From Escherichia phage Ioannina, in the sequence record OQ589852.1: DNA of 45,270 nt; one strand, 5' to 3'. Each line of letters begins with the position of its first letter. The first letter of the stretch is position 1. Of this stretch, positions 1 to 45,270 are shown one piece after another. The notes under the pieces are model-generated. The model had not been told where the DNA came from. It made no database searches and saw only the letters and a list, made by a program, of their open reading frames with translations. The position numbers were made by a program, and so were the translations under genes.

Positions 1-21
1 ATGCATAAAGGGGTTATTATC

Positions 22-573
22 ATGGCAGAAATCAAGGTAAAAGGCCGTCGTGCGAAGTTAGACGGGCGAGTCGCAGTCACTCCACGCCGCAAACCGGGCG
101 AGCAAACCGAACACACCAATCTCGGACCTGAAATCGAGTACGGCAAACGCCGGAAAGGGGGCAAGTGTGGCCGTCCTACTGATTATCGGTCTGTTTATTG
201 TCGCCAGTTGCGAGATTATTTTGCTTCAGCCGACGCATGGCAAGTCAACTACTCGGACAAGGGTGCGGCGCAAGTTATCCCACGTAACAAGATGCCAACA
301 CTTGGGCGCTTTGCGGCGGAAATCGGGGTAGGCGTAGCATGTCTGTATCGCTGGGCGCGTAAGCACGAAGAATTTGCCGAGGCGATGGCGGACGCGATGG
401 AACTGCAAAAGACCTTTCTCATGGAAGCGGGTGGCGTGACTATTGCTGCGGGATTTGCTGCATTCCTGCTTAAAGCCAACCACGGCGTACGCGACGATGC
501 ACCGCTGGAAGATGACGACGATGATAACGGCGACGTCACTGTGGAGCCAGCCGGTAAAGGGCAGGGCGAGTAA
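22..573 (+). CDS. terminase small subunit (putative)
   Basis: ORF immediately upstream of and overlapping the large terminase start (TAATG); HTH-like segment (ACLYRWARKHEEF), acidic C-terminus; AGGGG RBS before ATG at 22. The ATG at 1 is an alternative start. Confidence 0.55.
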   Translation: MAEIKVKGRRAKLDGRVAVTPRRKPGEQTEHTNLGPEIEYGKRRKGGKCGRPTDYRSVYCRQLRDYFASADAWQVNYSDKGAAQVIPRNKMPTLGRFAAEIGVGVACLYRWARKHEEFAEAMADAMELQKTFLMEAGGVTIAAGFAAFLLKANHGVRDDAPLEDDDDDNGDVTVEPAGKGQGE

Positions 574-1958
574 TGCGTAACTACGCGGCAGAGCACCGCG
601 CACTAGATCGCAAGCTGGCGAAACGCAACCGTCCGCCTAAACCTACCCGTGTAGCGCAAGCGGTCCGGCTATACCAGCCGGATTGCCTGCCGCACCAGGT
701 AGAGCTACTCCGCGACACGAAGACCAAAATCCTCGGCCTGTGTTCCGGCTTCGGCGGTGGAAAGTCATGGTCGGCGGCCCGTAAAGTCGTCCAGCTTCTG
801 TGCCTGAATCCTGGCTATGACGGCATTGTGACCGAGCCGACAATCCCGCTTCTGGTTAAAATCATGTACCCGGAGCTAGAGAAGTCTTTCGACGAGGCCG
901 GTTTGCGCTGGAAGTTCAATAAACAGGATAAGATTTATAACGTACTGGTGAAGGGTAAATGGACCCGCGTGATTTGCGAGTCAATGGAGAACTACACCCG
1001 CTTGATCGGTATTAACGCCGCGTGGATTGTTGCCGATGAGTTCGACACCACGAAGCAGGACGTCGCTATGGCGGCGTATCACAAGCTACTCGGTCGTTTG
1101 CGTGCTGGTAATGTGCGTCAGTTCGTCATCGTATCCACGCCAGAAGGCTTCCGGGCGATGTATCAGATTTTCGAAGTGGAGAAGGATAGCCAGAAACGTC
1201 TGATCCGGGCGAAGACTACCGACAACTTCCACTTACCGCCAGACTTCATCGACACGCTGCGAAGCCAGTACCCGGCAAACCTGATTGACGCATACCTGGA
1301 CGGTAAATTCGTCAACCTTACATCAGGTGCGGTGTACAAGATGTTCGACCGTGAGCAGAACGCCAGTACCGAGGAAGTGCAGCCAGAAGACACGCTAATC
1401 ATTGGCATGGACTTTAACGTCACGAAGATGGCGGCTGTGGTGTACGTCAGACGGCAGCGAGTCACGGAGGCGAAGGAGTTCCGCGACGAAATCCACGCAG
1501 TCGATGAGTTTGTTGACTTGTTCGATACGCCTGCAATGATTGACGAGATTGAGGCACGCTACCCCGATCATTGTGCTGCCGGTAAGGTGGTGATTTACCC
1601 GGATAGCAGTGGCAAGTCCCGTAAGACGGTCAACGCGTCCTCTTCGGATATTGCACAACTGGAAGACGCAGGCTTTGAGGTGGAATATGACAGCGTTAAC
1701 CCGCCGGTAAAAGACCGCCTGATTGCCATGAATACGATGATGTGTAACTCGAAGGGTGTGCGTCAGTATTTTGTGAATATGGCTAAATGCCCTACACTGG
1801 CAAAATGTTTAGAACAGCAGGTTTACGACCTGAAGAAAGGCGAGCCGGATAAAACGGCCGGTGTGGACCACATGAATGACGCCGCGGGCTATCCGATTGT
1901 GCACCTGTTCCCTGTGATTCGACCGATTGCCGTTGTTCCGACCGTCGATTTCTACTAA
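573..1958 (+). CDS. terminase large subunit
   Basis: 461 aa; Walker A-like GFGGGKS near N-terminus, nuclease-like C-terminal half; sits between TerS and portal. Confidence 0.85.
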   Translation: MRNYAAEHRALDRKLAKRNRPPKPTRVAQAVRLYQPDCLPHQVELLRDTKTKILGLCSGFGGGKSWSAARKVVQLLCLNPGYDGIVTEPTIPLLVKIMYPELEKSFDEAGLRWKFNKQDKIYNVLVKGKWTRVICESMENYTRLIGINAAWIVADEFDTTKQDVAMAAYHKLLGRLRAGNVRQFVIVSTPEGFRAMYQIFEVEKDSQKRLIRAKTTDNFHLPPDFIDTLRSQYPANLIDAYLDGKFVNLTSGAVYKMFDREQNASTEEVQPEDTLIIGMDFNVTKMAAVVYVRRQRVTEAKEFRDEIHAVDEFVDLFDTPAMIDEIEARYPDHCAAGKVVIYPDSSGKSRKTVNASSSDIAQLEDAGFEVEYDSVNPPVKDRLIAMNTMMCNSKGVRQYFVNMAKCPTLAKCLEQQVYDLKKGEPDKTAGVDHMNDAAGYPIVHLFPVIRPIAVVPTVDFY

Positions 1959-1970
1959 GAGGATAATTTA

Positions 1971-3491
1971 ATGTCTGTAAACGTGGACAACCAACACCCA
2001 CTCTACGCGCGCATTGCGCCTGAGTGGAAGATGATCCGTGACTGCGTTGCAGGTGAAAGGGCCGTTAAAGCGTGCGGCCCGCTTTACTTGCCGTTTCCGT
2101 CCAGTGGCGACAACACCGACCCAAAAGCGAAGGCCCGCTACAATGCATACAAGCAACGTGCGGTCTTCCTGAACGCCACCGCTCGCACGCTTAACGCGTT
2201 GCTGGGTATCGCCTTTGCGAAGCCAGTCACCATGAAGCTGTCCGGTAAAATCGCCGAGCTTATCGACGACGTAGACGGCAGCGGAATGCCATTGCCGCAG
2301 TTACTGCGTGGAGCGATGTCGGAAGTGCTGCAATCCGGGCGAGCCGGTTTTATGGTGGACTATGACCGCCAGGCGCATTTTGACGAACTGGGTAACGTCG
2401 TGCCGCAAACCGCCGCAGAGATGGCGATGCACCGTCCGCTCATTAAGCTGTACACGGCAGAGCAGATCATCAACTGGCGACAGACCCACGGGCAGGACAC
2501 CTTGATCGTGCTGAAAGAGTGCGACGAAATCAGCACCGAAGATACCGACGATTTCGCAAACCACGAAGTTACGATATGGACCGAGCTACGAATGGTCAAC
2601 GGCAAAGCACACGCCCGCCGCTGGTTTTTCAACGCAGACACGTCCGAAGTGCAGATGGATTTACCGCGTGGCTTTACCAAAACCGACCTGGTGCCGCTGG
2701 TAGATTCTGCCGGTCGCGCACTGGATAGCCTGCCGTTTTGCTGGTGTGGTGCAGTCGATAACAACGCCACCCCGGACGCCGCGCCGCTGGCTGATATTGC
2801 GTCCATCAACATTAAGCACTACAACGCCGAAGCGGACGTTGCTGAGATTGCGCACATCGTAGGCCAGCCGACGCTAATCACTACCGGTCTGACCCAATCA
2901 TGGGCCGATAAAAACCTGAAGGGTGGTATCGCGCTCGGTGCGACGAAGGGTGTTATCTTGGGCCAGAACATGGACGCCAAACTGCTTCAGGCCGAAGAAC
3001 GCAACCTGTCCGTGGCATTGTGTGAACGCCGTGAGAAACAGATGGCTAAACTCGGTGCGGCGCTGGTGGAGAAGGGGAGCGCACCTAAAACGGCAACAGA
3101 AGCGGCCTACGACGCGCAGACTGATAACAGTATCTTGTCGCTGATTGCCGGTAACGTTGAGAAGGCATTCAACAAGGCGCTTCAGATCGTGCAGTTGTTC
3201 ACTGGTGACACCGCCGAGCAGACTGTAACCCTGAACAAGTTCTACACCGAAATCACGGTGGATGCGCAGTTGATGACCGCAATGATGAGCGGTGTACAGA
3301 CTGGGACGGTCCGTCTTTCTGATTTCATCAAATGGATGATGGCACAGGGTGTAATCGACGATTCGCAGACTGTAGACCAGGTGGAAGACGACTTGCGGAA
3401 TCAGAATCCGTTGCCGCAAATGTCACCGGATGCGGTAAACTTGGACGATGACGAATCGGACAAGGTAGATGACGATGCCGAGGAAAATTAA
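1971..3491 (+). CDS. portal protein
   Basis: 506 aa directly after TerL; acidic C-terminal tail (DDDESDKVDDDAEEN); size and position typical. Confidence 0.75.
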   Translation: MSVNVDNQHPLYARIAPEWKMIRDCVAGERAVKACGPLYLPFPSSGDNTDPKAKARYNAYKQRAVFLNATARTLNALLGIAFAKPVTMKLSGKIAELIDDVDGSGMPLPQLLRGAMSEVLQSGRAGFMVDYDRQAHFDELGNVVPQTAAEMAMHRPLIKLYTAEQIINWRQTHGQDTLIVLKECDEISTEDTDDFANHEVTIWTELRMVNGKAHARRWFFNADTSEVQMDLPRGFTKTDLVPLVDSAGRALDSLPFCWCGAVDNNATPDAAPLADIASINIKHYNAEADVAEIAHIVGQPTLITTGLTQSWADKNLKGGIALGATKGVILGQNMDAKLLQAEERNLSVALCERREKQMAKLGAALVEKGSAPKTATEAAYDAQTDNSILSLIAGNVEKAFNKALQIVQLFTGDTAEQTVTLNKFYTEITVDAQLMTAMMSGVQTGTVRLSDFIKWMMAQGVIDDSQTVDQVEDDLRNQNPLPQMSPDAVNLDDDESDKVDDDAEEN

Positions 3492-4578
3492 CCAACGACT
3501 GGCGGATCGCATGATTCGCCGTCACATCTTCACCCAGCGCCTGAGCAATGAGCAGGCGCGTAAAGTGCTGGCAATGTGGCAAAAATTCCGTCCTACGTTA
3601 CTGGGTAAGCTGACCGAATTACTTGAGGGCAAGAAGTCAATGAGCAATAAGGCGCTTACCACTCTGCTAACCCAAATCGACAAAACGGTTAAGACCGAAC
3701 TGCGCGACGAGTTTAAAGTGCTGGCTGAAGGTCTGGCGGAGTTTGCCGATACCGAGGCTGAATATCTGACCGACACATTAACGGCAGCACTGCAACCTGC
3801 GCTTTCAGTCCCTGCCGTTGAGGTGGTTGGTGTAGTGACCGGTGCGCAGATTGCAGCGACGGCTATGAAAAATCCATTCCAGGGCAACACGCTTATGCAA
3901 TGGCCTGATTCTCTGTCAGAATGGACCAGAACGCAGATCAGCAATCAGGTGCGCGCCGGATTTATCCAGGGCAAACCTACTATGCAAATTATTGCGGACG
4001 TCAAGCGCGCGTTGGGCGGTCGTAGCGCGCAGGCCATTTCAAGCGTGGTCAAGTCCGCAGTCAACCACTATGCGGCGACCGCACGCGAATTAATGGTAAA
4101 AGCAAATGATGATATTCTCGACGGTCGCCAGTGGCTTTCTACACTGGATACTCACACCTCAACGCTCTGTCAGTTACGCGATCGCCTGTTTTATCCGGTT
4201 GATGTTACCCCCGAAACAAAAGGGAAACGGGACGGGAAAGTGGTGGCTGGATCACAGTATGGCGCTGGTCCTGGCAAGCTACATTATTGTTGCCGTTCTA
4301 CCGAGACGTGGAAAGTCAAGGGTATGGAAGATTGGCCCAGTGGTAAGCGTCCGGCACTGAAGGCCGAAGCGGGTAAACTGCTAAGTGAGCAGGTCAGTGC
4401 TAAGACGGACTTCTTCTCCTGGGTACAGCGCCAGCCGCGGCATATCCTTGAGGAATTATACGGAGTGCAGCGCGCGGACCAGATCCTGCGAGGCGTGAAA
4501 GTTCCGACCATGTTTAACGACGCGGGCGAGCTTATGACGATTCAACAACCAAAAAATAAGGGGTTATGGCGTGATTAA
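3469..4578 (+). CDS. minor head / head morphogenesis protein (Mu gpF / SPP1 gp7-like)
   Basis: 369 aa following and overlapping the portal gene; start codon uncertain (several in-frame Met). Confidence 0.55.
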   Translation: MTMPRKINQRLADRMIRRHIFTQRLSNEQARKVLAMWQKFRPTLLGKLTELLEGKKSMSNKALTTLLTQIDKTVKTELRDEFKVLAEGLAEFADTEAEYLTDTLTAALQPALSVPAVEVVGVVTGAQIAATAMKNPFQGNTLMQWPDSLSEWTRTQISNQVRAGFIQGKPTMQIIADVKRALGGRSAQAISSVVKSAVNHYAATARELMVKANDDILDGRQWLSTLDTHTSTLCQLRDRLFYPVDVTPETKGKRDGKVVAGSQYGAGPGKLHYCCRSTETWKVKGMEDWPSGKRPALKAEAGKLLSEQVSAKTDFFSWVQRQPRHILEELYGVQRADQILRGVKVPTMFNDAGELMTIQQPKNKGLWRD

Positions 4579-4879
4579 ATACGCAGCAGCCGGATTGATT
4601 CTCGGCCTTGTAATTGGGTTCTGGCAAGGTGACAACTATCGTGCTGGCGTGGTGGCGGAGGCGGCGCAGGAAGCGCAAGCCAAAGCCCAACGGCAGCAAA
4701 CTAAGGTAATCCATGAGTCGGTACAGAAAGAGCAGGCCCGCGAAGTGGAGTTCCGCACAGTTGAGAAAGAGGTGATTAAATATGTCACGCGTCCTGATCG
4801 CGATAATTGTAAGTTTGATGCTGACCGCGTGCGGATCAAGCAACGTGCCGTTGATGCCGCTAACGGAATCAGCAATTAA
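4571..4879 (+). CDS. Rz-like i-spanin
   Basis: N-terminal TM helix (AAAGLILGLVIGFW), Q/A/E-rich coiled coil; an out-of-frame lipoprotein ORF overlaps its 3' half, the classic Rz/Rz1 arrangement. Confidence 0.6.
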   Translation: MIKYAAAGLILGLVIGFWQGDNYRAGVVAEAAQEAQAKAQRQQTKVIHESVQKEQAREVEFRTVEKEVIKYVTRPDRDNCKFDADRVRIKQRAVDAANGISN

Positions 4880-5012
4880 GCCGCCGTGTAAGTTTGAGTC
4901 GCCATCGGAAGATCCGGACGAAGATTTAGCGATTGATGTGCGAAATATGAAATGCGGGGCGGAGTTAAGGGCACAAGTGCTGGATTTGCAGAAATTAATT
5001 AAGGGGCCGTAA
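4782..5012 (+). CDS. Rz1-like o-spanin lipoprotein
   Basis: Signal peptide with lipobox LTAC, Pro-rich mature part with Cys; begins inside Rz in another frame and runs past its stop. Confidence 0.65.
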   Translation: MSRVLIAIIVSLMLTACGSSNVPLMPLTESAIKPPCKFESPSEDPDEDLAIDVRNMKCGAELRAQVLDLQKLIKGP

Positions 5013-5025
5013 TGGCCCCTTTCTA
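5002..5025. terminator. bidirectional rho-independent terminator (AAGGGGCC-loop-GGCCCCTTT)
   Basis: GC-rich perfect stem flanked by A-run and T-run; lies between convergent Rz1 and the minus-strand gene. Confidence 0.7.
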
Positions 5026-5787
5026 TTAGCGCGGAATACCGCAGATTTCGTTTAGTGTCTTCACGTCAAGCGCTACTGCCGTTGACTTCTTCTCTTCCTG
5101 CGGGATGAACTGTTTCACTTCAGGCCATGCCTTAATAAGTTTGGTGTCTGTAGTGTACTTATTCAGAGTACCCATAACTGACAATTTAAACTCATCGTAT
5201 TTAGCACGTAAATCGCGGCGCGCCTTGTCGTTCTTATCCAGACGTTTGCAAAATTCATGCTCTGCCGGGTAATCTGCACGACCGCGAGGCTTGTAGATCG
5301 GCACTTGCTCACCTTCCGCGTTAATTTCCACCAGCGCCGTAAGTAGCGCAGTTTCAAACCCAGGTACGATTTCGCCAATGTCCGGGGCCATCGAGTTATT
5401 GTAGCGGTCTTCCCAGTAGCCTCGGTGACAGCGGCTGCTGTAGTTATCACCGCTCAATGACAGTGTGCGGATGTTACCACCCATGTTGACTTCGAACGTT
5501 GCATCGTACACAGCACCAATGCCGTGGGGCATGTCCTTGTTATGGCTGAAGGTTGCACGGCTGGCGTACACGCTTATGCTAAACATGCCGTTATTTGTGT
5601 CTTGATAGCTGCGCATCATTTTCTGCAACCCAACGAAGCTGGTAACACCTTTCGGCATCTGATCCAGAGTGATATCCAGCGCCAGGTCGCGCGATTCGGT
5701 CATTAACTTTTTGGCCTGCTTCGTGATTTCGTGGCCTGCCAGGATGTTAGCCAGGATTTGCTTTTTAATGTCTTTAGTCAGTCTCAT
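5026..5787 (-). CDS. hypothetical protein, early-promoter-driven minus-strand gene inside the structural module
   Basis: About 253 aa from MRLTKDIKK with GAGGAAACAACA RBS; own promoter upstream and own terminator downstream; no recognisable motif. Confidence 0.5.
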   Translation of the reverse strand: MRLTKDIKKQILANILAGHEITKQAKKLMTESRDLALDITLDQMPKGVTSFVGLQKMMRSYQDTNNGMFSISVYASRATFSHNKDMPHGIGAVYDATFEVNMGGNIRTLSLSGDNYSSRCHRGYWEDRYNNSMAPDIGEIVPGFETALLTALVEINAEGEQVPIYKPRGRADYPAEHEFCKRLDKNDKARRDLRAKYDEFKLSVMGTLNKYTTDTKLIKAWPEVKQFIPQEEKKSTAVALDVKTLNEICGIPR

Positions 5788-5810
5788 TGTTGTTTCCTCG
5801 TTTGTTGGTG

Positions 5811-5885
5811 TGCAACCAATATATTGCAACCAATTAGCCAATGCAAGCAAATTTTGTGATTATTTTTATCACTGATAATATTAAG
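5811..5885. promoter_or_regulatory. divergent promoter region with tandem TGCAACCAAT repeats
   Basis: Minus strand reads TTGCAT-N17-TATATT, overlapping two ATTGGTTGCA copies; plus strand has TTGTGA-N16-TAATAT upstream of the scaffold gene. Confidence 0.55.
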
Positions 5886-5937
5886 GGCGTGAAGTCGAGC
5901 GGGTGGCCCGCTCTGCCACAATCCCTGGGGGATGTTA

Positions 5938-6641
5938 TGAAACTGACTAAAGCAGAATATGACGCGTTGCCTGAAGGCATGAAAGCATTGTTTGTTGCCG
6001 ATGGTGACGGGTACAAGGCGACGTTTATGACCGCCGAAGAAGTACAGGCCGAGATCAAAGGTCTGAAGGATAACAACGCGAAGCTGGTAGGCGAGAAAAA
6101 GGCAGAAGCCGAACGCCGTGCCGAAGCGGAGCGACTCGCTAAAGAGAAAGAGGAAGCCGCAGCGCGCAAGAACGGCGACCTTGAAGCGATCGATAAGTCC
6201 TGGCAGGACAAGTTTACTAAATACGATGCGGATACGAAGGGCAAAATCGAAGCCTACCGCAAACAGATTCACGATCTTACCATCGGCAGCACTGCCAAAG
6301 ACCTGGCATCAAAGCTGTTCGGTAAGAACGCTGGCATTATGCAACGCCACGTCATGGACCGCCTTGCGCTGGAAGAAGGCGAAGACGGCAGTCTGAAAGT
6401 GCGCGTATTGCAGGACGGCAAACCATCCGCACTGACTATGGAAGAACTGGAGAAAGAGTTCCGTAGTAACGAAGATTTCGCGTCCGTCCTGGCGGGTACG
6501 CCTGCCGGTGGTGCGCCGAGCAAACCGACCCATGTAATCGACGATCCGAAATCTAAGATTCAGATGGGTCATAGCTTCGGCATCACTGACTTGACCAAAC
6601 AGGCCAGCGATATTATCGCCAAACTGGGCGACGACGAGTAA
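5938..6641 (+). CDS. scaffolding protein
   Basis: About 234 aa from MKLTKAEYDAL; charged coiled-coil (AEAERRAEAERLAKEKEEAAARK); directly upstream of major capsid gene. The track's longer ORF from 5841 is probably an over-extension. Confidence 0.65.
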
Positions 6642-6644
6642 GCA

Positions 6645-6680
6645 GGTTGCCCGCGAAAGCGGGCAATTTTGCGAGCGTGA
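6645..6680 (+). terminator. rho-independent terminator/attenuator
   Basis: TTGCCCGC-GAAA-GCGGGCAA hairpin followed by TTTT. Confidence 0.6.
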
Positions 6681-6738
6681 AAAATTAGGGTAACATTAAA
6701 AGCACTGGGCGATTGCTCTCTACTCAAAGGATAAACTT

Positions 6739-7860
6739 ATGTCTTTAACAGTGTTCCAGCGTAAACTCGTCACCGCGGTTACGCAAATGATCCCCGACAA
6801 CTTGAACGTCTTCAACGCTGCCGCTAACGGCGCGGTCGTTCTCGGTACTGGCGAAGTGCTGAAAGATGTTGTCGAGAAGATGTCTGTAGGTCTGATCGCC
6901 AACCTGGTGTCTGACCGTAACGCATATGCCCCGGTTGGTACTCCTGCCGATGCGAAAGTGCTGGCGCGTATGCTGACCAACTCCGTTAACCTGTCCGCGA
7001 AAGTCGGTCCTGTTGCAATCACCAAAGCTATGATGGCTAAAATCGAAACCAACGTTAACAGCGTTGCGGCTGAGATTGCGGCACAGGCTACTCAAGCTAT
7101 CTTGCTGCACTACCTGAAAGCGGGTATCGGCGCTGGTAAAGCTGCGATCGACTCTAACGATGCGGCGAAATATACCCAACCGGCGCGCGTTGACGGTGTA
7201 GGCGGTCGTACCTTCCCGACCCTGGCAGACTTCCCGCTGGCGGCGGCTAAGTTCGGCGATCAGGCATCTCTGATTAAGTCCTGGTTTATGGACGGTGTGA
7301 CCTGGGCTAACTTCATTGCATATCAGGCGCTGCCTTCTGCTGAGCAGGTGTTCGCGATCGGCGACCTTCAGGTAATGGGTGATGGCTTAGGCCGCCGCTT
7401 TATTATCTCCGATGCCGCTGCCGATGCAATGGGCGCTGGCAAAATGCTGGGTCTTGTTCCGGGCGCGGTAGCAGTTACTACCAACGGTCTGGATATGCTG
7501 GCGCAGGAGCGTGGTGGTAACGAGAACATCGAGCGCTGGTGGCAGGGTGAGTTTGACTTTAACGTCGCTGTTAAAGGCTATCGCATGACCGCGGCAGCAC
7601 GCGCAGGCGTTGAAGGCGTCCGTTCCTTCAAACTGGCTGATATTACCAATACCAGTAACTGGGAACTGGATCAGGGCCAGGTCGATAACGCGCCGTACAC
7701 TACCTACGACGTTGGCGGCACGGATACTGAAGAGGGATCTACCACTTCACTGAAAGAGAAAGGTCGTCGTCGTAAGCAGGACGCGCAGGCCGTACCGACC
7801 CGCCACATCAAGGAAACTGCCGGTGTGTTGGTAACTCTGACGGCAACCACCGCATCTTAA
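6739..7860 (+). CDS. major capsid protein
   Basis: 373 aa, Ala/Gly/Val-rich; follows scaffold; strong terminator hairpin after the stop. Confidence 0.8.
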   Translation: MSLTVFQRKLVTAVTQMIPDNLNVFNAAANGAVVLGTGEVLKDVVEKMSVGLIANLVSDRNAYAPVGTPADAKVLARMLTNSVNLSAKVGPVAITKAMMAKIETNVNSVAAEIAAQATQAILLHYLKAGIGAGKAAIDSNDAAKYTQPARVDGVGGRTFPTLADFPLAAAKFGDQASLIKSWFMDGVTWANFIAYQALPSAEQVFAIGDLQVMGDGLGRRFIISDAAADAMGAGKMLGLVPGAVAVTTNGLDMLAQERGGNENIERWWQGEFDFNVAVKGYRMTAAARAGVEGVRSFKLADITNTSNWELDQGQVDNAPYTTYDVGGTDTEEGSTTSLKEKGRRRKQDAQAVPTRHIKETAGVLVTLTATTAS

Positions 7861-7917: not shown

Positions 7918-8418
7918 ATGTATGGCGACCCACAAACATTTGTAGATTATGCCAACGCGCGAGGCGTAGAAGTCACATTGGGAGATGCAACGCAGCACTT
8001 GACCGTCGTTAACGACTTCCTGAACGGCCTCGACTGGATCGGCGACCCTGCGGACCATCTCGGCGTCGATGCGTGGCCTCGTATGAATTTCACCTCCGAC
8101 GGTAAGCCAATCCGCGAAACGGACACGCTTGACATCACCACTATTCCGAAAGGCCAGCAAGTCGAGTTTTCTGCAATTCCCGTTGCCGTTGAGCAGGCGG
8201 TTTATCGACTTGCCTTGCTGGTGGCGGACGGCATTGATATTTCACCCATCGGCGGTGGTAAAGAAACAATCCGCGAAACGGTTGGCCCGATTACGATGGA
8301 ATATGACCCGTCTACCTTTGGCGGTTATGTTTCGTTCCCGTGGTGGGATGGTATGCTGAGCTACTGGTTGAACACCGAAGGCAACGCAGCCGGTAACTTT
8401 GACGTATACAGAGGTTGA
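7918..8418 (+). CDS. head-tail connector / head completion protein (putative)
   Basis: 166 aa; position between capsid and tail genes; AGGAG RBS. Confidence 0.4.
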   Translation: MYGDPQTFVDYANARGVEVTLGDATQHLTVVNDFLNGLDWIGDPADHLGVDAWPRMNFTSDGKPIRETDTLDITTIPKGQQVEFSAIPVAVEQAVYRLALLVADGIDISPIGGGKETIRETVGPITMEYDPSTFGGYVSFPWWDGMLSYWLNTEGNAAGNFDVYRG

Positions 8419-8420
8419 TT

Positions 8421-8882
8421 ATGAATCCTGCAATCATCGTAGCGATGCTGGCGGCGTTGGCTACTAAAGAAGACGAGCCAGAAGTAGAACAACCGGAGGC
8501 CGGAACAACCAGAAGGAGGCGAAAGAGGATGGCGGGCTTTGACTATCGGGCGTTGAAACGGAAAGTTAATCCGTTGATTAATAAATTTGGCATGAAGGTG
8601 ATGGCATCACGTCCAGGCGGCGTGGTGCGCGTGGGCGGCGAGGAAGTGGTGACGCCGCCGTTATCGTTTGAAATCGTCGGCCTGCGTGAAGAATACAAGC
8701 CGCATGAGATAGACGGAACGCGTGTCCTTTCCGGGGACGTTAAATTTTTATGCCAGGCTACCGAGCAGTTGCAGGTTGGTGACACGGTTAATCTGAATAA
8801 CATCGACTACCGCGTGGTGAATCCTAACCCCCTGCAACCGGCAGCTACAACAATGCTGTTCCAGTTACAGCTAAGGGGCTAA
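8421..8882 (+). CDS. head-tail joining protein (putative)
   Basis: About 153 aa from MNPAII with GAGG RBS; call by position only. Confidence 0.35.
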   Translation: MNPAIIVAMLAALATKEDEPEVEQPEAGTTRRRRKRMAGFDYRALKRKVNPLINKFGMKVMASRPGGVVRVGGEEVVTPPLSFEIVGLREEYKPHEIDGTRVLSGDVKFLCQATEQLQVGDTVNLNNIDYRVVNPNPLQPAATTMLFQLQLRG

Positions 8883-8883
8883 C

Positions 8884-9474: not shown

Positions 9475-9475
9475 T

Positions 9476-9898
9476 ATGAGCAATACTAAAATCCGGAAGG
9501 CGCTGAATAGCGTAGTGGAAGAGTTAGCCGCGGAATTGCAGACGGGTACGCGCATTATCCGCATCAACTGGGAGAATATTGCGGGCGACCACGCAGACGG
9601 CAACGGCATCTACCTAGAGCCGTACCTGCTACCGGCCCCGACCCAGTTTGTTGGCCTACAGCAGAAGGGACGGATCTACGCGGGCGTGTATCAGGTTGCC
9701 GTAGTGTTCCCCGCGGACACGGGCACGCAGTATGCCAGCGAACTGGCGGACACCATTGCCGAGTCGCCAAAGTGGCAGAACGTGAAAATTGACGGCATGA
9801 CGTTCCAGTTACAAGATGCACCGTACACCAGTCCGGTGACTGAAGATATTGACGCGGCGCGCATTGTAATCACGGTTATGTACCACGGTTGCGCCTGA
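9476..9898 (+). CDS. tail completion / tail terminator protein (putative)
   Basis: 140 aa immediately upstream of major tail gene. Confidence 0.4.
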   Translation: MSNTKIRKALNSVVEELAAELQTGTRIIRINWENIAGDHADGNGIYLEPYLLPAPTQFVGLQQKGRIYAGVYQVAVVFPADTGTQYASELADTIAESPKWQNVKIDGMTFQLQDAPYTSPVTEDIDAARIVITVMYHGCA

Positions 9899-9959
9899 TT
9901 TGGCGCAATTCAGCGTGTGCGGTATCATTAATCGGAATAACTAAACAGGAGCATTCATT

Positions 9960-10685: not shown

Positions 10686-10717
10686 TTTGGTCGGGTAAAT
10701 GGCGAGTGTTAACATTG

Positions 10718-36235: not shown

Positions 36236-36438
36236 TATTCGACCCTCGTAAATTGAGCAATATAATAATCATGCTTAATTCCTGCTTTCGCCGCGGCGTT
36301 ATTCATTGTCGCTGCCAGTTCTTTCGCTTGCATCCAGCAACAATTCCAGTTCTGATTCATAATTATTTCCGGCTGTTCGTCGCCGGTGTTACGGCAGCGA
36401 AATAAAATAAAGAAAATACTCATTATGGCGTCTCCCAA
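36235..36438 (-). CDS. hypothetical small protein
   Basis: 67 aa ORF in early operon; no motif. Confidence 0.3.
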   Translation of the reverse strand: MGDAIMSIFFILFRCRNTGDEQPEIIMNQNWNCCWMQAKELAATMNNAAAKAGIKHDYYIAQFTRVE

Positions 36439-36674
36439 CGGTCAATAGTTTTTGCTTCAGACCCAACTGCAAAGCGAACATATTCGTGATTCGAGTCCGC
36501 CCATAAATAAAAGTCTGGATTAGCGAAGGTCGTGCGTTTAATTTGTGCCGGTGTTTCCCGCTTCTTACTAATTACGGCAACGCGGGATTGAAAGGGGCCG
36601 GTGCGCTCGAATAGCCAGTAGTACGGGCGCTGGTCGCGCGAGTCCACCGCTTCAATTAATGTGAATCGTGCCAT
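36423..36674 (-). CDS. hypothetical protein
   Basis: 83 aa; second gene of the leftward early operon. Confidence 0.35.
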   Translation of the reverse strand: MARFTLIEAVDSRDQRPYYWLFERTGPFQSRVAVISKKRETPAQIKRTTFANPDFYLWADSNHEYVRFAVGSEAKTIDRWETP

Positions 36675-36689
36675 TGTCTCGTCTCTTTA

Positions 36690-36712
36690 AAAATAGGCCC
36701 GCAGAATAGCGG
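36690..36712 (-). terminator. minus-strand attenuator hairpin after first early gene
   Basis: GGCCCGC-TATTCT-GCGGGCC followed by TATTTTT on the minus strand. Confidence 0.5.
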
Positions 36713-36722
36713 GCCGGGTATA

Positions 36723-37225
36723 TTAGTCTTCCAGTTCGAAATAGGTTTCGACTATTTCTTTCAGTTCGGTGTGGAAGTCTTCAACGTCGTCATCTTCCAG
36801 CTTAGCCACAGTCTTGATTTCGAACGATTCCAGCAGGTCGTCAAATTCGTCGTTCGCGTCGTCATCGTCACCGCCTGCAATGATTGCCGCGTATTGTGCA
36901 ATTTCATCGCGCATTTCTTTCAGTGGATCGGCGTCTTTCTTAGCCTTCACTTTGCCCTTGCCTTTGGCTGGCTTTTCTTCCGGTTCGTCTTCGTCGTCGT
37001 CATCTTCTACGACTTCTTTTTTCGCCTTGCCCTTAGCCGTGGACTTCTTAGCAGGTTTCTTATCTTCCTGCTCGTTATCTTCGTCTTTGGCTTCTTCTTT
37101 CTTAGCCTTAGACGGTTTCTTATCTTCCTGCTTACCAACGGCAGCGCCCTGGGTTTCGTAATGTTTAGCGATGGTTTCCAGTGCTACTACGCCGCGAGTA
37201 ATCAGATTCAGGATTTGCTCAAACA
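36723..37225 (-). CDS. first early protein, highly charged low-complexity with very acidic C-terminus
   Basis: About 167 aa from MFEQILNL; lysine-rich blocks alternating with DDDDEDE-type blocks; promoter-proximal in the early operon. Confidence 0.45.
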
Positions 37226-37269
37226 TGGTGTGTCTCCGTTTAGTTAAAAGTGAATGTCGTTTCGACGAG

Positions 37270-37305
37270 GTGAATAATAGATTGGTTGCAGGATGGGTGT
37301 CAACA
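37270..37305 (-). promoter_or_regulatory. leftward early promoter (TTGACA-N18-TATTAT)
   Basis: Consensus -35 hexamer on the minus strand, with a TGCAACCAAT copy in the spacer. Confidence 0.6.
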
Positions 37306-37414
37306 ACTAATTTAAAAAAAAAATCCCCGAAGCAAAACGCAACGGGGATAACCATAAGAGACAATGAGACTGGTTTTATTATTACACGCGCGCGCACCCG
37401 TTTCAATATACAAA

Positions 37415-37450
37415 ACAGTTGACACCGGTTTAATTTGGGTGTAGTTTCTT
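37415..37450 (+). promoter_or_regulatory. rightward promoter for the HTH regulator and primase operon (TTGACA-N17-TAGTTT)
   Basis: Plus-strand TTGACA about 55 nt upstream of the ATG; GGTGTCAAC…GTTGACACC inverted repeats flank the divergent region. Confidence 0.5.
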
Positions 37451-37477
37451 TGGTCATTAACCAACAGGAGACGGATT

Positions 37478-40084: not shown

Positions 40085-40087
40085 ATT

Positions 40088-40175
40088 TTGCGCGCATTGG
40101 TTGCCAATATGGTTAATTTGTGCGCGCATTGGTTGCCGGATTGAGCATTAAATTCATATCGTATTGGTTGCCGTG
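40088..40175. repeat. three direct repeats of (GCGCGC)ATTGGTTGCC spaced about 34 bp
   Basis: Immediately downstream of the primase-helicase stop. Confidence 0.7.
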
Positions 40176-40204
40176 TAGTGTTAAAGAAGTGAATAATTAT
40201 GCAA

Positions 40205-40380
40205 AATACGTGCATAAAACAAACGGGACAAAAACGGGACAAACGGCAAGCGGGACAAAGCGGGACGTCCCGTCGTCCCCGTCAGTCGTGGCGCGGGTTT
40301 GAGGCAAACGGGACAAGCGGGACAGACCACAGTCTTTCAGACTAGACGGGGGGTATTGTCCCCCCTCCGTCTGAGACTGC
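40205..40380. repeat. GGGACA iteron-like array plus conserved hairpin, copy 2
   Basis: Collinear with 11591-11770 (TGCATAAAAC, ACGGGACAAAAACGGGACAA, GCGGGACA-AGCGGGACGTCCCG, CGCGGGTTT, hairpin CAGTCTTTCAGACTAGACGGGGGG…CCCCCCTCCGTCTGAGACTG). Confidence 0.8.
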
Positions 40381-40529
40381 ATAAAATCTCTGGTTGCATA
40401 ATCAACGGCAGCATAGTGAAAAATGCGGCGGGGGTAGATCTCGGCAACCAATGCGAGTTGAAGAGTGGAGAGTGAAAAATGCAGTTTGCAATTGCAACTC
40501 ATAGCGATCAGCATTTTCATGCGCGTGAT

Positions 40530-40575
40530 TAATATTGGTTGCATCCAGCCTGGCACCTTGCTATATTGGTTGCAC
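40530..40575 (+). promoter_or_regulatory. early-type promoter (TTGCAT-N17-TATATT) with ATTGGTTGCA repeats
   Basis: Plus strand: ATTGGTTGCATCCAGCCTGGCACCTTGCTATATTGGTTGCAC, about 30 nt upstream of the ATG at 40596. Confidence 0.55.
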
Positions 40576-40595
40576 ACCAACATGAGGACTGAACG

Positions 40596-40901
40596 ATGAG
40601 AGCATTAATCTGGAATTACACAATGGCTGTGGCGAAGCTGTACGAAGCGAAGCACACAAACGGCAACGCAGACGACGCGCGCCAGGCTGTCATCCTGGCC
40701 CAGCAGGGAATCATGAACGCGTTCGACAATATGTTTGCCAGCCTAGACGAACTGGAACCGCTGCGCGTGGCAATCTGCGAATATGCGATGGCATTTGCCC
40801 GTGAACGCCTGGCATACCGGTTTGGTATCGGGAAAACGGCAGTGGCTAACATCGCCCGCATTCAGGCCCAGCGTGAGCTGCACGCCATACTCGCGAAATA
40901 A
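40596..40901 (+). CDS. hypothetical protein
   Basis: 101 aa, alpha-helical; no motif. Confidence 0.4.
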   Translation: MRALIWNYTMAVAKLYEAKHTNGNADDARQAVILAQQGIMNAFDNMFASLDELEPLRVAICEYAMAFARERLAYRFGIGKTAVANIARIQAQRELHAILAK

Positions 40902-40910
40902 GGGGCCAAA

Positions 40911-41180
40911 ATGGCACGCAGACGCGCTCAATGGCTTTCATGGCACATTCCCCTACATAGCATCCGTTTATGGGCGCAGAACGCGATTGAGGGCGATTCT
41001 GTGTTCTGGAGCTATCGGGATGACGTCAAGCCGCTGACGCAGACCAGAAAGCTGCACCAGTTCATGAACGAACACGGACTGCCGGTGAAAACATCATTGC
41101 AACCAATCGGCATCCGTATTACATTACGCCGTAAGCCAATCGTTGAGCAGGTTGGCAAACACAGGAGACTGACAAAATGA
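40911..41180 (+). CDS. hypothetical protein
   Basis: 89 aa, basic. Confidence 0.35.
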   Translation: MARRRAQWLSWHIPLHSIRLWAQNAIEGDSVFWSYRDDVKPLTQTRKLHQFMNEHGLPVKTSLQPIGIRITLRRKPIVEQVGKHRRLTK

Positions 41181-41773
41181 AATTGATCTTCCGCCATAAA
41201 CATAATGGGCGATTCCTTACCCCAATCCAGGTGCTGCCGAACTATGTGCGCCTGCACCACGAAGCCAGCGACCGCGTATTCTGGTTTAAGAAAGCCACTC
41301 TGCCGAAATATTTGCAGGTTGTGCATCATGACGTCCGCGTCGGCGATGTGCTGCGGGATATTCGGGACGGTGCGCTGTTCGTAGTCCAGCGTGTGACTAC
41401 CTTCGGCGTTGTACTGCAATGCGGAGCGATCCGACGCCGTCTATTTTCTGTCGGCCTGGTGAACTACACTCGCGTGGGCCGGAACTATGTGCCTAAGCTG
41501 TTCAAGCGCTACGACGCCAACCAGGTGCAAGCGAAGATGGGTCGCGCCGTACACAAAATCGTCAATCGCTTTGATGCCGTGACGAACGCACAGCGCCATG
41601 CGCAGGAATACGGTGTGGGATTCATCCGAGTAGAACGAGACGGCAGTATGACGTCCATCGACCCGCGCTCGACCCAACTGAAGATAGTCGAAGTGAGCAA
41701 ATGTTGCCGGGCAGAAGTTGTGCGCGACCCCGGCGGGCAAGCCTTCTGTCGCGAGTGTGTGGGTGTGATATGA
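41177..41773 (+). CDS. hypothetical protein with C-terminal CxxC…CxxC
   Basis: 198 aa; C-terminal SKCCRAEV…CREC. Confidence 0.4.
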   Translation: MKLIFRHKHNGRFLTPIQVLPNYVRLHHEASDRVFWFKKATLPKYLQVVHHDVRVGDVLRDIRDGALFVVQRVTTFGVVLQCGAIRRRLFSVGLVNYTRVGRNYVPKLFKRYDANQVQAKMGRAVHKIVNRFDAVTNAQRHAQEYGVGFIRVERDGSMTSIDPRSTQLKIVEVSKCCRAEVVRDPGGQAFCRECVGVI

Positions 41774-41910
41774 GCGCAACCATCCGTGATATGCTTATGC
41801 ACAACCGTTTTGAGATAGGCGGTCGGGTGTTTCGCAATTACTTCGTGGCGCGTGCCTGGGCGCGCCATATTGGCAAACCGGAGAAAGAGATAAAATGCTA
41901 TACGATGTGA
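41770..41910 (+). CDS. small hypothetical protein
   Basis: About 46 aa from MSATIRDM; overlaps neighbours; weak. Confidence 0.25.
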   Translation: MSATIRDMLMHNRFEIGGRVFRNYFVARAWARHIGKPEKEIKCYTM

Positions 41911-42182
41911 TATTTTGGTTCGGGTTATTCTGCGCAATCTTACTGGTTGGCGCTGTTACCCTGGTGATTGCAGTCTGGTTTATATGGCCTGCCGTTGAGG
42001 CCGTGAGCATTACCCGCATGACCTTCGCCTACTACAAGAAACACAGCATCACGCAACATTCCAGCAGGCTTAGGGTGTGGTGGCTGTGGTATCGCGATAT
42101 GCTCGGAGGCAGGCGGTTCGAGGCCATCAGGTCACACGGTTGGGAATGGCAAGGCGTAGGACGCTGGTCAATTTCAGAATAA
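41895..42182 (+). CDS. membrane protein
   Basis: N-terminal hydrophobic span (VIFWFGLFCAILLVGAVTLVIAVWFIW), Trp/Arg-rich C-terminus. Confidence 0.4.
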   Translation: MLYDVIFWFGLFCAILLVGAVTLVIAVWFIWPAVEAVSITRMTFAYYKKHSITQHSSRLRVWWLWYRDMLGGRRFEAIRSHGWEWQGVGRWSISE

Positions 42183-42203
42183 TTATGCAGTCGTGATATA
42201 GTC

Positions 42204-42233
42204 CCCAGTGAGGTTTAATCTTACTGGGGCTTT
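42204..42233 (+). terminator. rho-independent terminator
   Basis: CCCCAGT-loop-ACTGGGG followed by CTTTTT. Confidence 0.55.
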
Positions 42234-42235
42234 TT

Positions 42236-42538
42236 ATGGAAGTTTTCCACAAATTAGATGAATGGGTAATTATCGCCGCTGCCGGGGTGGCGGGTGGCTT
42301 CGTAGGTGCGCGTATGCACCCGGAAGCTGCACAAGGACCGGTAAACTTTGTGCTGTTCGTCGTCGTTGGCTTCCTGTGTGCGGTATTCGGCGCACCAGCC
42401 ATCGCCGAACTGACCGGATTGACCAGTCAGCGCATGATCGCAGGTCTTGGATTCGTAACGGCAATCTTCTGGATGCCGATTGCGGCACGGATCCGAGAGC
42501 TAATCGCTAATGCCCGCTTTCCGGGAGGTGCCAAATGA
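42236..42538 (+). CDS. holin-like membrane protein
   Basis: 100 aa, three predicted TM segments, charged C-terminus; directly upstream of the lysozyme gene. Confidence 0.5.
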   Translation: MEVFHKLDEWVIIAAAGVAGGFVGARMHPEAAQGPVNFVLFVVVGFLCAVFGAPAIAELTGLTSQRMIAGLGFVTAIFWMPIAARIRELIANARFPGGAK

Positions 42539-42801
42539 TTTTCGGCGTCGATGTTTGTGCGTGGTTTGGCGTTATGTTCTTCCTCATCGTCGGCGTGTCG
42601 TCGCTGTACAACGTCTACGCCGCATCCGTGAATGACGGCCTTGTTGGTCGTGTGCTCTATCTCTTAACGGCAGTCTTCTGCGTGGTCGGCTTGATGCAAA
42701 CCGGGCATGTGGAGAACGCCACTATCAACGCCATTTGCTGGCTGTTTGCATTGCGCACCCTGCGCAATGCTGTTTTGAAAGGTGTAAAACATGCAATTTA
42801 G
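42535..42801 (+). CDS. holin/antiholin-like membrane protein
   Basis: 88 aa, two or three TM segments; overlaps both neighbours. Confidence 0.45.
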   Translation: MIFGVDVCAWFGVMFFLIVGVSSLYNVYAASVNDGLVGRVLYLLTAVFCVVGLMQTGHVENATINAICWLFALRTLRNAVLKGVKHAI

Positions 42802-43276
42802 TGAGAATGGTTTGCGGTTTACTGCCGCATGGGAGACGTTTAGCCCGGTGCCCTACTTCGCCACGAAGAAAGAGCAGGAGCAAGGTCTTTATACCTGGGG
42901 CTTCGGTCATACGGGCACTAACCCGCCGCGCAGCATTACCCGCACTGAGGCAATGGAACTACTGCGCAAGGATATTGCCATTGCTGAGAAGTTTGTTCAG
43001 CGCGCAATGCCGATCGGGGCGTTCAACCAGGCCCAGTACGACGCGCTTGTGGATCTGGTCTTCAACGTAGGGCCGCGTGCCATCGGGGCTAATACCGGAA
43101 CTGGTCGTGCAGTTCGTGCCGGTGATATTCAGACGATCCGTGCTAAACTGCCTCAATTCCGTATGCAAGCCGGGGTTGTTGTCAAGGGTCTGGTGCGTCG
43201 CGCTAACGGACGCCTGGCACTGTTCGACGGTAAGCAGTGGGACGTTGCCGAGCGTATCGGTCGTAATTCAGCTTAA
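42791..43276 (+). CDS. endolysin (T4-type lysozyme, GH24-like)
   Basis: N-terminal ENGLRFTAAWE…YTWGFGHTG follows the T4 lysozyme E…D…T pattern. Confidence 0.75.
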   Translation: MQFSENGLRFTAAWETFSPVPYFATKKEQEQGLYTWGFGHTGTNPPRSITRTEAMELLRKDIAIAEKFVQRAMPIGAFNQAQYDALVDLVFNVGPRAIGANTGTGRAVRAGDIQTIRAKLPQFRMQAGVVVKGLVRRANGRLALFDGKQWDVAERIGRNSA

Positions 43277-43285
43277 GGGGGAGAT

Positions 43286-43693
43286 ATGTTAAAAAGTATT
43301 CTTGATCATAATGCGGACGCGCTTGACGCGTTGGCTAAAACGGACGACGCTGGCGCGCGTCGCATCATTGCAAACACCATCAGCCATGCTGGGGTGTTTG
43401 GTGCAAGCCTTCCGGGGCCTAAGCCGGATGTGAAGGTGTCAAGCGCCACAGTAACGGTAACACCAGAGGAAGTTACAATCGGCACCAAGTCTAAGGCTAC
43501 GGTGGCGGTGCAACCGGCAGGGGCGACCGATAAATCCGGTGTGTGGATTAGTGGGTCGCCAACCATCGCCACCGTTGACGCTTCGGGTAATATCGACGGC
43601 AAAACTCCCGGTTCTGTCGATATTATTTGGGTGGCTAAGGATGGAAGCGGGGTGTCGGGCCGAAAAACGGTAACTGTGGCAAACGCCGAGTAA
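43286..43693 (+). CDS. bacterial Ig-like (Big_2-type) domain protein
   Basis: C-terminal 80 aa (ATVAVQPAGATDKSGVWISGSPTIATVDASGNIDGKTPGSVDIIWVAKDGSGVSGRKTVTV) is a typical Big_2 fold; no signal peptide. Confidence 0.55.
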   Translation: MLKSILDHNADALDALAKTDDAGARRIIANTISHAGVFGASLPGPKPDVKVSSATVTVTPEEVTIGTKSKATVAVQPAGATDKSGVWISGSPTIATVDASGNIDGKTPGSVDIIWVAKDGSGVSGRKTVTVANAE

Positions 43694-43697
43694 AGAG

Positions 43698-43728
43698 CAA
43701 GCCCGCAACTATGGCGGGCTTTTTATTG
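43698..43728 (+). terminator. rho-independent terminator
   Basis: AGCCCGC-AACTATG-GCGGGCT followed by TTTTTATT. Confidence 0.65.
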
Positions 43729-43780
43729 CTTGACTTGCAACCAATTAATAGCTCATACTTCTGTCGCCGTGGTATATTGA
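43728..43780 (+). promoter_or_regulatory. promoter region (TTGACT plus TGCAACCAAT; downstream TATATT)
   Basis: TTGACTTGCAACCAATTAATAGCTCATACT and a TATATT hexamer upstream of the ATG at 43812; exact -10 unresolved. Confidence 0.4.
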
Positions 43781-43811
43781 TCGCGGTCAAACTGAATCAG
43801 GAAAATATACG

Positions 43812-44954
43812 ATGCACCCTCAAACCAAAATTACAGACGAGCAGTTGATCGCCGAAATCCAGGCGGGAACGACCGCGAAAGATATTGCTAAGAAATACGG
43901 GATTGCACTGCGCAATGTTTATATGCGCAAAGCACGCTTATCTAAAAAGGGGATTGGGCACGGTAACGATGCCGTAATTCGTAAGCGGGTTGCCGATGGC
44001 TTCGGCGTGAAACGTGTATCCGCCCTGGTACGAGGCAATGGCGAAGAGGTCATGTCGTGGGTTATCACCGAGCAGGACAAAGAGCGCCAGCTTGAGGCGA
44101 TGCGTGCAGTGCTGGACGGCATGAACAGCGAAATCACACCGGCAGCACCCGTAAGCGCGCCACCAGTCCCGATCCAGGCGCTGGACCTGCTAAACCTGTA
44201 CACCGTGTCCGACTTCCACCTGGGGATGCTGGCATGGGGAGAAGAGACTGGCGAGGATTGGGATATGGCTATTGCCGAAGACCTGTTCTACCGCTGGTTT
44301 GTCGAAGCCTTTGCCCGCGCCCCGGATGCCGGAACAGGCGTGATTAACATCCTCGGTGATATGGCCCACTTTGACAGCCTGGATGCCGTTACCCCCGCAA
44401 GTGGTCACGTCCTGGATGCCGATACCCGCTATCAGAAGCTGGTGCGCTACATGATTCGCATGGTCCGCCGCGTTGTCGAACTGGCATTGCAGAAACACCA
44501 CAAGGTTAAACTGCTAATCGTGCAGGGCAACCATGACGAAAGCGGTATGATCTGGCTGGCGGAGATGTTCGCTACGCTGTACGAGAACGAGCCGCGCGTT
44601 GAGGTGGATACGTCGCCGGATGTCTATAAGATGGTCCAGCACGGTAAGACTACGCTGTTCTTCCATCACGGGCACAAGGCTAAATTCGACGCTATCGAGC
44701 CGGTCATGATTTCGAAATTTCGTGAGGCGTTCGGATCCAGCCAGTACAGCTATGCTCACGTAGGACACCTGCACCACCAGAAGATTATCGAATCGCGCAA
44801 CATGATTGTTGAACAGCACCGCACGCTTGCCGCGAAGGATGCCTACGCCAGCCGAGGCGGTTGGATGAGCGGACGCAGTGCAAACGTGATAACCTATAGC
44901 GCGAACTACGGTGAAGTAGCACGCTTAACCATTAGCCCGGAGATGTTGAAATGA
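43812..44954 (+). CDS. HTH domain fused to calcineurin-like metallophosphoesterase
   Basis: N-terminal HTH (TAKDIAKKYGIALRNVYMRKARL); metallophosphatase motifs GDMAHFD, GNHDE and HHGH. Confidence 0.55.
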   Translation: MHPQTKITDEQLIAEIQAGTTAKDIAKKYGIALRNVYMRKARLSKKGIGHGNDAVIRKRVADGFGVKRVSALVRGNGEEVMSWVITEQDKERQLEAMRAVLDGMNSEITPAAPVSAPPVPIQALDLLNLYTVSDFHLGMLAWGEETGEDWDMAIAEDLFYRWFVEAFARAPDAGTGVINILGDMAHFDSLDAVTPASGHVLDADTRYQKLVRYMIRMVRRVVELALQKHHKVKLLIVQGNHDESGMIWLAEMFATLYENEPRVEVDTSPDVYKMVQHGKTTLFFHHGHKAKFDAIEPVMISKFREAFGSSQYSYAHVGHLHHQKIIESRNMIVEQHRTLAAKDAYASRGGWMSGRSANVITYSANYGEVARLTISPEMLK

Positions 44955-45163
44955 TCAGACAAGTATTCATGAGCACGCAGGCCGCACGCCTGGCTGAATT
45001 ACGCAAACAACTGGAAGGACTGCGCCGATTCGAGCGCACAGCGGCAGCGGTAGGCATGAGTATGTCGGAACGGATCGAGATACTCACTCAAATTCGCCAC
45101 ACAGAGGGCGCAATCGAGGCAGTTAAGGCTATGCTAACCCGATACTACGGTCGACCCGTTTAA
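44951..45163 (+). CDS. hypothetical small protein
   Basis: 70 aa, helical; followed by terminator. Confidence 0.35.
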   Translation: MIRQVFMSTQAARLAELRKQLEGLRRFERTAAAVGMSMSERIEILTQIRHTEGAIEAVKAMLTRYYGRPV

Positions 45164-45171
45164 TCTCACCA

Positions 45172-45200
45172 CAGGCCCGCTTACGCGGGCTTTTTTGTGT
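45172..45200 (+). terminator. rho-independent terminator
   Basis: GCCCGC-TTAC-GCGGGC followed by TTTTTTGTG. Confidence 0.65.
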
Positions 45201-45270
45201 CTGCAATTCTCCCTGATATAATCGTGACAGGTGGTTGGGCCACCTCCTATGTTGCCGATGGTCGGCGCAT

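Follow-up and report, generated by a model that had tools for sequence, protein, structure and literature searches.

This analysis focused on the complete sequence record of Escherichia phage Ioannina (OQ589852.1), a stretch of 45,270 nucleotides referred to here as the window, and on the question of where the DNA ends of this phage lie. The window very probably represents one complete unit of the circular map of a virulent Dhillonvirus, opened at the small terminase gene (terS) and packaged by a headful (pac) mechanism from a cut near position 40495. That position is not at the edges of the window but in a conserved stretch of non-coding DNA that separates the helicase-primase gene from the lysis-cassette operon. 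It is predicted by homology from the one fixed end measured in the genus, which lies about 4.8 kb upstream of terS, beside a conserved repeat module.

A complete Dhillonvirus genome, opened by convention

Similarity searches of GenBank phage records with both halves of the window led to the genus Dhillonvirus, the HK578/SO-1-like virulent siphoviruses of E. coli. The top matches were three unannotated records named 'Dhillonvirus LM40P1' (OZ035811, OZ035746, and OZ035780; 45,013-45,119 bp), which were 99.3-99.6% identical across the first 23-25 kb of the window and 97.4-97.8% identical across the remainder. Direct comparison with OZ035811 gave an overall similarity of about 95.5% (sum of identity x length), and the two were colinear throughout, the only off-diagonal matches being those between two modules of GGGACA repeats, described below, which matched each other. 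Gene order was identical in LM40P1, while the window was longer by 151-257 bp and carried three replaced or diverged segments, at 22994-23476 (inside the lateral tail-fiber gene), 26341-27963 (accessory genes), and 36262-36411. With a similarity right on the 95% species line, Ioannina would belong to the same species as LM40P1 or to a sister species.

About 150 further Dhillonvirus records matched at around 82% nucleotide identity, a level shared by the HK578/SO-1-like phages KarlBarth, rolling, BF9, WFI, and UDS3lw; for KarlBarth, the value was about 83% over 74-93% of the length. The ICTV genus criterion is a nucleotide similarity of at least 70% over the genome. Ioannina clearly falls within Dhillonvirus, both by its similarity to LM40P1, which NCBI files under this genus, and by gene order and core proteins, as 58 of the 65 KarlBarth proteins were colinear on the window. 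In length it falls within the usual range for the genus (43-47 kb). The window is the complete genome of an already known kind of phage.

Closure of the map was evident at the window edges. Bases 1-8 of OZ035811 (LM40P1) correspond to window positions 45263-45270 and its end to position 45262, so that this record is the same circle as the window, rotated by 8 bases. Dhillonvirus records have been deposited in many different permutations, and a query that joined the final 1,500 bases of the window to its initial 1,500 was found as one colinear piece inside the differently permuted record of phage rolling. A shorter, 1,400-base junction query (window end followed by window start) was located once in each of 92 records, mostly as an undivided BLAST alignment, with the gene order phosphoesterase, 70-aa gene, terS, and large terminase gene (terL) running over the junction. 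The window was colinear with its relatives over its full length, with no module missing, and showed neither host flanks nor a duplicated overlap. The original prediction for this DNA, which was made from the sequence alone and took the window probably to span an entire phage genome, is borne out by these results. It also held that further phage or host genes continuing across both edges would speak against completeness; sequence does continue across the edges, but each edge runs into the other, which is circular closure and not a sign of a missing part. With the window being exactly one unit of the genome, repeated elements counted within it are counted for the whole genome, including the two GGGACA modules and the 17 exact copies of a promoter motif, ATTGGTTGC. 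The prediction had likewise regarded the modules and the promoter family as whole-genome features, provided that the window is complete.

Genes were called by PHROG and Pfam profile searches and by mapping KarlBarth proteins onto the window. The features at the two edges are as follows.

1..573, plus strand: open reading frame of terS, small terminase (PHROG 3064 'terminase', E=6e-71)
44951-45163, plus strand: conserved 70-aa gene, the last in the window (PHROG 20931)
45173..45198, plus strand: intrinsic terminator closing the rightward operon (hairpin 45173-45192; 8-bp stem with 6 GC pairs, then TTTTTT)
45195..45270, plus strand: leader 5' of terS, with a promoter-like TTGTGT-16 nt-TGaTATAAT (extended -10) and a GGTGG..CCACC hairpin

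It was also correctly foreseen that the window opens with TerS and closes, after a terminator, about 100 bp past a small gene (107 bp past the stop codon of the 70-aa gene, with a hairpin and T-run between), and that packaging, morphogenesis, replication, and lysis functions are all present, as every module had PHROG, Pfam, or KarlBarth matches. The ATG at window position 1 is simply the earliest one in the terS frame, and it was there that the circular map was linearized by convention. The true start of terS is likely the ATG at position 22, which has the better ribosome-binding site (AAGGGG 7 nt upstream), is the start used in annotated relatives, and is the point from which KarlBarth TerS aligns, at 92% identity. 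The leader at 45195..45270 is continuous with terS in LM40P1 and rolling, and its TTGTGT-16 nt-TGaTATAAT element would be the terS promoter, cut from its gene by the window edge. As the promoter region of terS stands at the opposite end of the window, features close to an edge have to be interpreted with the two ends joined. The start of a record at terS, in itself, says nothing about the location of the DNA ends.

Probable headful packaging and the predicted fixed end

Several dhillonviruses have been reported to package by the headful mechanism. Opt-212 and its relatives were assembled as circles and called headful by PhageTerm (PMC9022532), BF9 was found to be headful (pac) with a permuted and redundant genome (PMC10059673), UDS3lw was described as headful with a pac site (PMC13348001), and four of five bovine dhillonviruses were scored as circularly permuted (PMC8407724). 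Outside the genus, the Jerseyviruses have been reported as P1-like headful packagers, with a large terminase (TerL) and DNA polymerase related to those of dhillonvirus K19 (PMC10783031). The terL gene of the window is as follows.

573..1958, plus strand: terL, large terminase (Pfam Terminase_6N and Terminase_6C; PHROG terminase large subunit)

Its nearest matches outside the genus were the terminases of Jerseyvirus and Kagunavirus (about 41% identity over 88% of the protein); these are different genera, and their likeness to the window is seen only at the protein level, via TerL. Solved structures sought by sequence gave no match for TerL and only chance-level matches for TerS. The dhillonvirus relatives resemble the headful pac phages P1, P22, Sf6, and SPP1 in having one fixed end on one strand, other ends that are distributed, terminal redundancy, and permutation; the PhageTerm class of BF9 is 'Headful (pac), P1 type', and the TerL of the window is of the Terminase_6 type. 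The window itself shows the circular assembly without a fixed terminal repeat that is expected under headful packaging, and by analogy with the relatives, in which this mode was shown, Ioannina would package its DNA in the same way. Because relatives package by the headful mechanism and carry permuted, redundant virion DNA, the window edges are not to be taken for physical ends.

The position of the fixed end was derived from BF9. The PhageTerm table in the supplement to that study lists just one peak as significant, at position 28168 of the minus strand (T=0.53, p=8e-65; Headful (pac)), with the next best peak at T=0.04 (PMC10059673). When the corresponding segment of the BF9 record was reversed to the orientation of the window, the peak base was the C of TTGCAGTTA/CAGCAGATAGCGATC (the slash marks the cut, here and below). 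Six GenBank records start at this very base: WFI and PTXU06 (both Germany), Pandora71 (Greece), SP1 (China), UDS3lw (USA), and BMA1 (Ecuador). For UDS3lw and WFI, the end of the record joins up with this start base to complete the circle. The BF9 peak would match the shared record start to the base by chance with a probability of about 1 in 45,000, and the agreement confirms that the supplement coordinates are GenBank-record coordinates. Korf et al. 2019 (WFI and PTXU06) contains no statement on termini that would account for the start base of those records.

Transferred to the window, the peak and the six record starts place the predicted cut between positions 40494 and 40495, 4776 bp before the window end and about 110 bp past the second GGGACA module. 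The BF9 peak is on the minus strand and the BF9 record is inverted relative to the window, and packaging would therefore proceed rightward in window coordinates. The features of this region are as follows.

40085..40595, plus strand: 511-bp conserved non-coding region holding GGGACA module 2 and the predicted pac-proximal cut
40081-40172: three tandem TTGCGCGCATTGGTTGCC boxes, in which three copies of ATTGGTTGC lie
40187-40384: GGGACA module 2, with a hairpin at 40330-40379
40485..40505, plus strand: fixed (pac) terminus predicted for the first headful, lying between 40494 and 40495 (TTTGCAATTG/CAACTCATAG), by homology to the BF9 peak and the six record starts
40534-40580, plus strand: ATTGGTTGCA promoter, 3' of the predicted cut
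within 40085-40595: GTGAAAAATGC repeats

The flanks of the cut, GTGAAAAATGCAGTTTG and ATAGCGATCA...TTTTCATGCGCGTGATTAAT, were conserved in nine aligned phages, the window included, while at the cut itself the window reads CAATTG/CAACTCATAG, against CAGTCA/CAGCAGATAG in most relatives. Conserved flanks around variable cut bases would fit a cut that is placed from a nearby recognition site and not by its own sequence. That Ioannina cuts at the same place as its relatives is inferred from this homology, and what the terminase recognizes as its pac sequence is likewise inferred. A perfect 12-bp palindrome, TTGCAATTGCAA, occupies 40486-40497, with the predicted cut 3 nt to the right of its center; it is absent from the other dhillonviruses, which have TTGCAGTCACAG, and from LM40P1 (OZ035811), which has TTGGTAATGACA.

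Most likely, the phage replicates to concatemers, which are then packaged by the headful (pac) mechanism. By homology with the measured relatives, the terminase would make one site-directed cut at about 40495, the head would be filled with slightly more than one genome length, and the second cut would be made without sequence specificity, after which the terminase would continue along the concatemer. Virion DNAs would then be terminally redundant and partly circularly permuted. Judging by the T of 0.53 in BF9, a series may comprise only about two headfuls. Packaging would run from 40495 to 45270 and on to position 1, taking in the lysis genes, the window junction, terS, and the structural genes in that order.

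The model pac phages P22, Sf6, SPP1, and P1 carry their pac site inside the small-terminase gene or adjacent to it. The fixed end mapped here differs from these in lying 4.8 kb upstream of terS, in non-coding DNA. If this placement is true, it would represent a pac site distant from the terminase genes, an arrangement described in no paper found by literature searches. The coordinate of about 40495 is testable, and would be useful for studies of packaging and transduction in this common group of coliphages.

Alternative readings of the DNA ends

The original prediction went on to expect the physical ends or the pac site near the window edges, and this part did not hold. It amounts to a complete genome with its physical ends at or near the edges of the window, or with its pac site there, inside terS or a little upstream of it on the pattern of P22, Sf6, and SPP1. 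Several observations are in its favor: the window edge falls in a 128-bp intergenic stretch after a terminator, TerS weakly resembles the small-terminase families of P22 (gp3) and Sf6 (Pfam GP3_package and Sf6_terminase, both under the cut-offs), whose pac sits inside terS, and many records start at terS. Such an arrangement is nonetheless highly unlikely. A record start at terS is a stated convention (PMC9022532), the sequence at the edge is continuous in 92 relatives, and BF9 reads show no peak near terS, their only significant peak mapping 4.8 kb upstream. Tested via relatives, then, a pac site within or adjacent to terS was not found, as the BF9 peak and the six record starts converge on window position 40495. 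Direct repeats between the two ends, which the prediction had proposed to look for, were likewise absent; the longest word shared by the window ends was an 11-mer, which is at chance level, and there was no prefix/suffix overlap. Fixed cohesive ends (cos), giving a unique linear genome with ends elsewhere than the window edges, have been reported for one member of the genus, EE09, for which PhageTerm gave a 10-nt 5' cos end, ATCTTAAGGG (PMC10673088). For Ioannina this is very improbable indeed. The motif is absent from the window, where its best matches have 1 mismatch and occur at chance frequency, and neither a direct terminal repeat nor a cos end was found at the window edges. The EE09 start maps to about window position 28000, a non-conserved site, and the first 21 EE09 bases have no counterpart there; its assembly involved scaffolding and gap filling and was given as 97% complete, so that contig ends could mimic termini, and headful packaging or permutation was scored for at least six other dhillonviruses (Opt-212, BF9, UDS3lw, and four bovine isolates). 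The cos end of EE09 was therefore rejected as a property of the genus, and is probably a contig-end artifact.

That the window belongs to a larger entity, be it a prophage flanked by host DNA, a longer phage, or a concatemer produced by assembly, and is hence incomplete or not exactly one unit, is scarcely credible. Nothing positive speaks for it; the window exceeds the three LM40P1 records in length by 150-260 bp, an excess that is explained by the mosaic segments at 22994-23476, 26341-27963, and 36262-36411, without duplication. The reading also sits poorly with the lack of prefix/suffix overlap and with a size inside the range typical of the genus. Its prophage form was rejected, as the window sequence had no match in 5,426 complete E. 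coli genomes. No integrase or lysogeny gene was found among the mapped window genes. Some points do weigh against headful packaging from a cut at about 40495. Both the mechanism and the position rest on relatives and not on reads of Ioannina itself, and some of the six identical record starts may reflect copied orientation and not independent measurements. About 8 bases on each side of the cut vary in this lineage, and the cut could be shifted. Among the relatives, one bovine dhillonvirus isolate was scored as 'fixed' (PMC8407724), and the cos end reported for EE09 also stands on this side. Headful packaging of a complete, circularly closed genome nevertheless remains the preferred reading.

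Repeat modules and promoter motifs

The two largest non-coding stretches of the genome, 11421-11832 (412 bp) and 40085-40595 (511 bp), hold one GGGACA module each. The features of the first are as follows.

11421..11832, plus strand: non-coding region, with a terminator-like hairpin at about 11421-11445, then GGGACA module 1
11449-11560 and 11574-11770: GGGACA module 1, as a partial (third) copy and a full copy, with a hairpin at 11717-11765

Across the genome GGGACA is not enriched (19 found, 18.5 expected), but 15 of the 19 copies fall in two clusters, at 11449-11711 and 40225-40362. The modules form a 178-nt direct repeat (11574-11751 and 40187-40364) that is 83% identical, with a conserved extension beyond it. 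In both, the GGGACA units are spaced by 11 bp, and both carry a GGGAC-GTCCC palindrome together with a strong hairpin (-28 kcal/mol, z about -4) that is not followed by a U-run. No Rfam family was found in the whole window at gathering thresholds, and the hairpins of the modules are not a catalogued RNA. The non-coding regions with their modules are highly conserved and present in all 158 Dhillonvirus records. Module 1 sits 29 kb from module 2, in front of the tape-measure gene.

Candidate roles for the module include a replication origin (iterons) beside the helicase-primase gene, sites for a transcription regulator, and a terminase recognition or packaging signal. As a sufficient pac signal it was rejected: BF9 lacks a peak at the counterpart of module 1, its one further minus-strand peak with p<1 (38030, T=0.04, p=0.03) mapping near window position 30600, and the module alone therefore does not direct cutting. 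A more specific proposal, that dhillonvirus packaging starts in 40085-40595 with the GGGACA/hairpin module as part of terminase recognition, or of a combined control region for replication and packaging, must be considered rather unlikely.

The recurring promoter motif ATTGGTTGC occurs in 17 exact copies, against about 0.35 expected by a simple calculation from genome length. Sites include 5812, 5826, 21948, 21965, 28008, 28025, 40096, 40128, 40163, 40534, and 40565. Copies are often paired and nearly all intergenic, and the motif overlaps a TTGCA -35-like element, with a TATATT/TATAAT-like -10 following. In the divergent early region, a gene just upstream of that for the helicase-primase encodes a 109-aa protein with matches to helix-turn-helix (HTH) and sigma-70 region-4 domains. 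This protein is a candidate binder of the ATTGGTTGC or GGGACA motifs.

37478-37807, plus strand: HTH/sigma-70 region-4-like protein, 109 aa (Sigma70_r4_2 and HTH_23 matches)

Gene content and arrangement

The remaining features of the genome, in map order, are as follows.

1971..7860, plus strand: head module (PHROG, Pfam, and KarlBarth matches)
1971-3491, plus strand: portal
3469-4578, plus strand: head morphogenesis
4571-4879 and 4782-5012, plus strand: overlapping spanin pair, homologues of the annotated i-spanin and o-spanin of KarlBarth
5026-5850, minus strand: Nmad5 gene (Nucleotide-modification-associated domain 5; E=6e-43)
5841/5937-6641, plus strand: scaffold
6739-7860, plus strand: major capsid
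7918..11420, plus strand: head-tail connector and tail chaperone genes (KarlBarth, PHROG)
9960-10685, plus strand: major tail protein
11833..25084, plus strand: tail module (tape measure, minor tail proteins, tip, fiber, and fiber accessory genes, to 25084)
11833-14475, plus strand: tape measure
17244-20690, plus strand: J-like tip
20718-21692, minus strand: DUF6453 gene
21992-24016, plus strand: lateral tail fiber
25165..37457, minus strand: leftward block of accessory and replication genes
27015-27500, minus strand: Dam-like methyltransferase
28354-29070, minus strand: Dcm-like methyltransferase
29067-30719, minus strand: helicase, a single 550-aa reading frame
31246-33612, minus strand: DNA polymerase
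33643-34575, minus strand: single-stranded DNA-binding protein (SSB)
34805-36235, minus strand: exonuclease
37820-40084, plus strand: replicative helicase-primase
40596..45163, plus strand: region of small genes and the lysis cassette
42236-42538 and 42535-42801, plus strand: holins
42791-43276, plus strand: endolysin
43812-44954, plus strand: phosphoesterase/DNA-repair exonuclease

GC and AT skew switch sign over the leftward block, and a tRNA scan of the window found none. Compared with KarlBarth, the window has extra genes at 25189-27043 and carries the DUF6453 gene in place of KarlBarth gp25-27; the phosphoesterase gene is present in the window and in rolling but absent from KarlBarth.

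Within the head module, the Nmad5 gene lies on the opposite strand, with its own pair of ATTGGTTGC promoters. The spanin pair sits between the head-morphogenesis gene and this minus-strand gene; the holin-endolysin cassette (42236-43276) is 37 kb away by window coordinates and about 8 kb away around the circular map. In the 550-aa helicase frame, residues 3-72 match PHROG 9291 and KarlBarth gp38, while residues 58-548 match the DNA helicase KarlBarth gp37; these are separate genes in KarlBarth, whereas in the window they are in frame without a stop.

The lateral tail-fiber gene contains four or five tandem 42-nt (14-aa) repeats at 22464-22673, and the segment replaced relative to LM40P1 (22994-23476) lies just 3' of them. 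Two perfect copies of a 22-nt hairpin sequence, AAGGGGCCGTTTGGCCCCTTTC, lie inverted relative to each other at 20696-20717 and 25165-25186. The two copies flank a host-range cassette made up of the DUF6453 gene, the lateral tail fiber, and the fiber accessory genes, part of which varies among relatives, as in the replacement of KarlBarth gp25-27, and they may represent recombination boundaries for module exchange.

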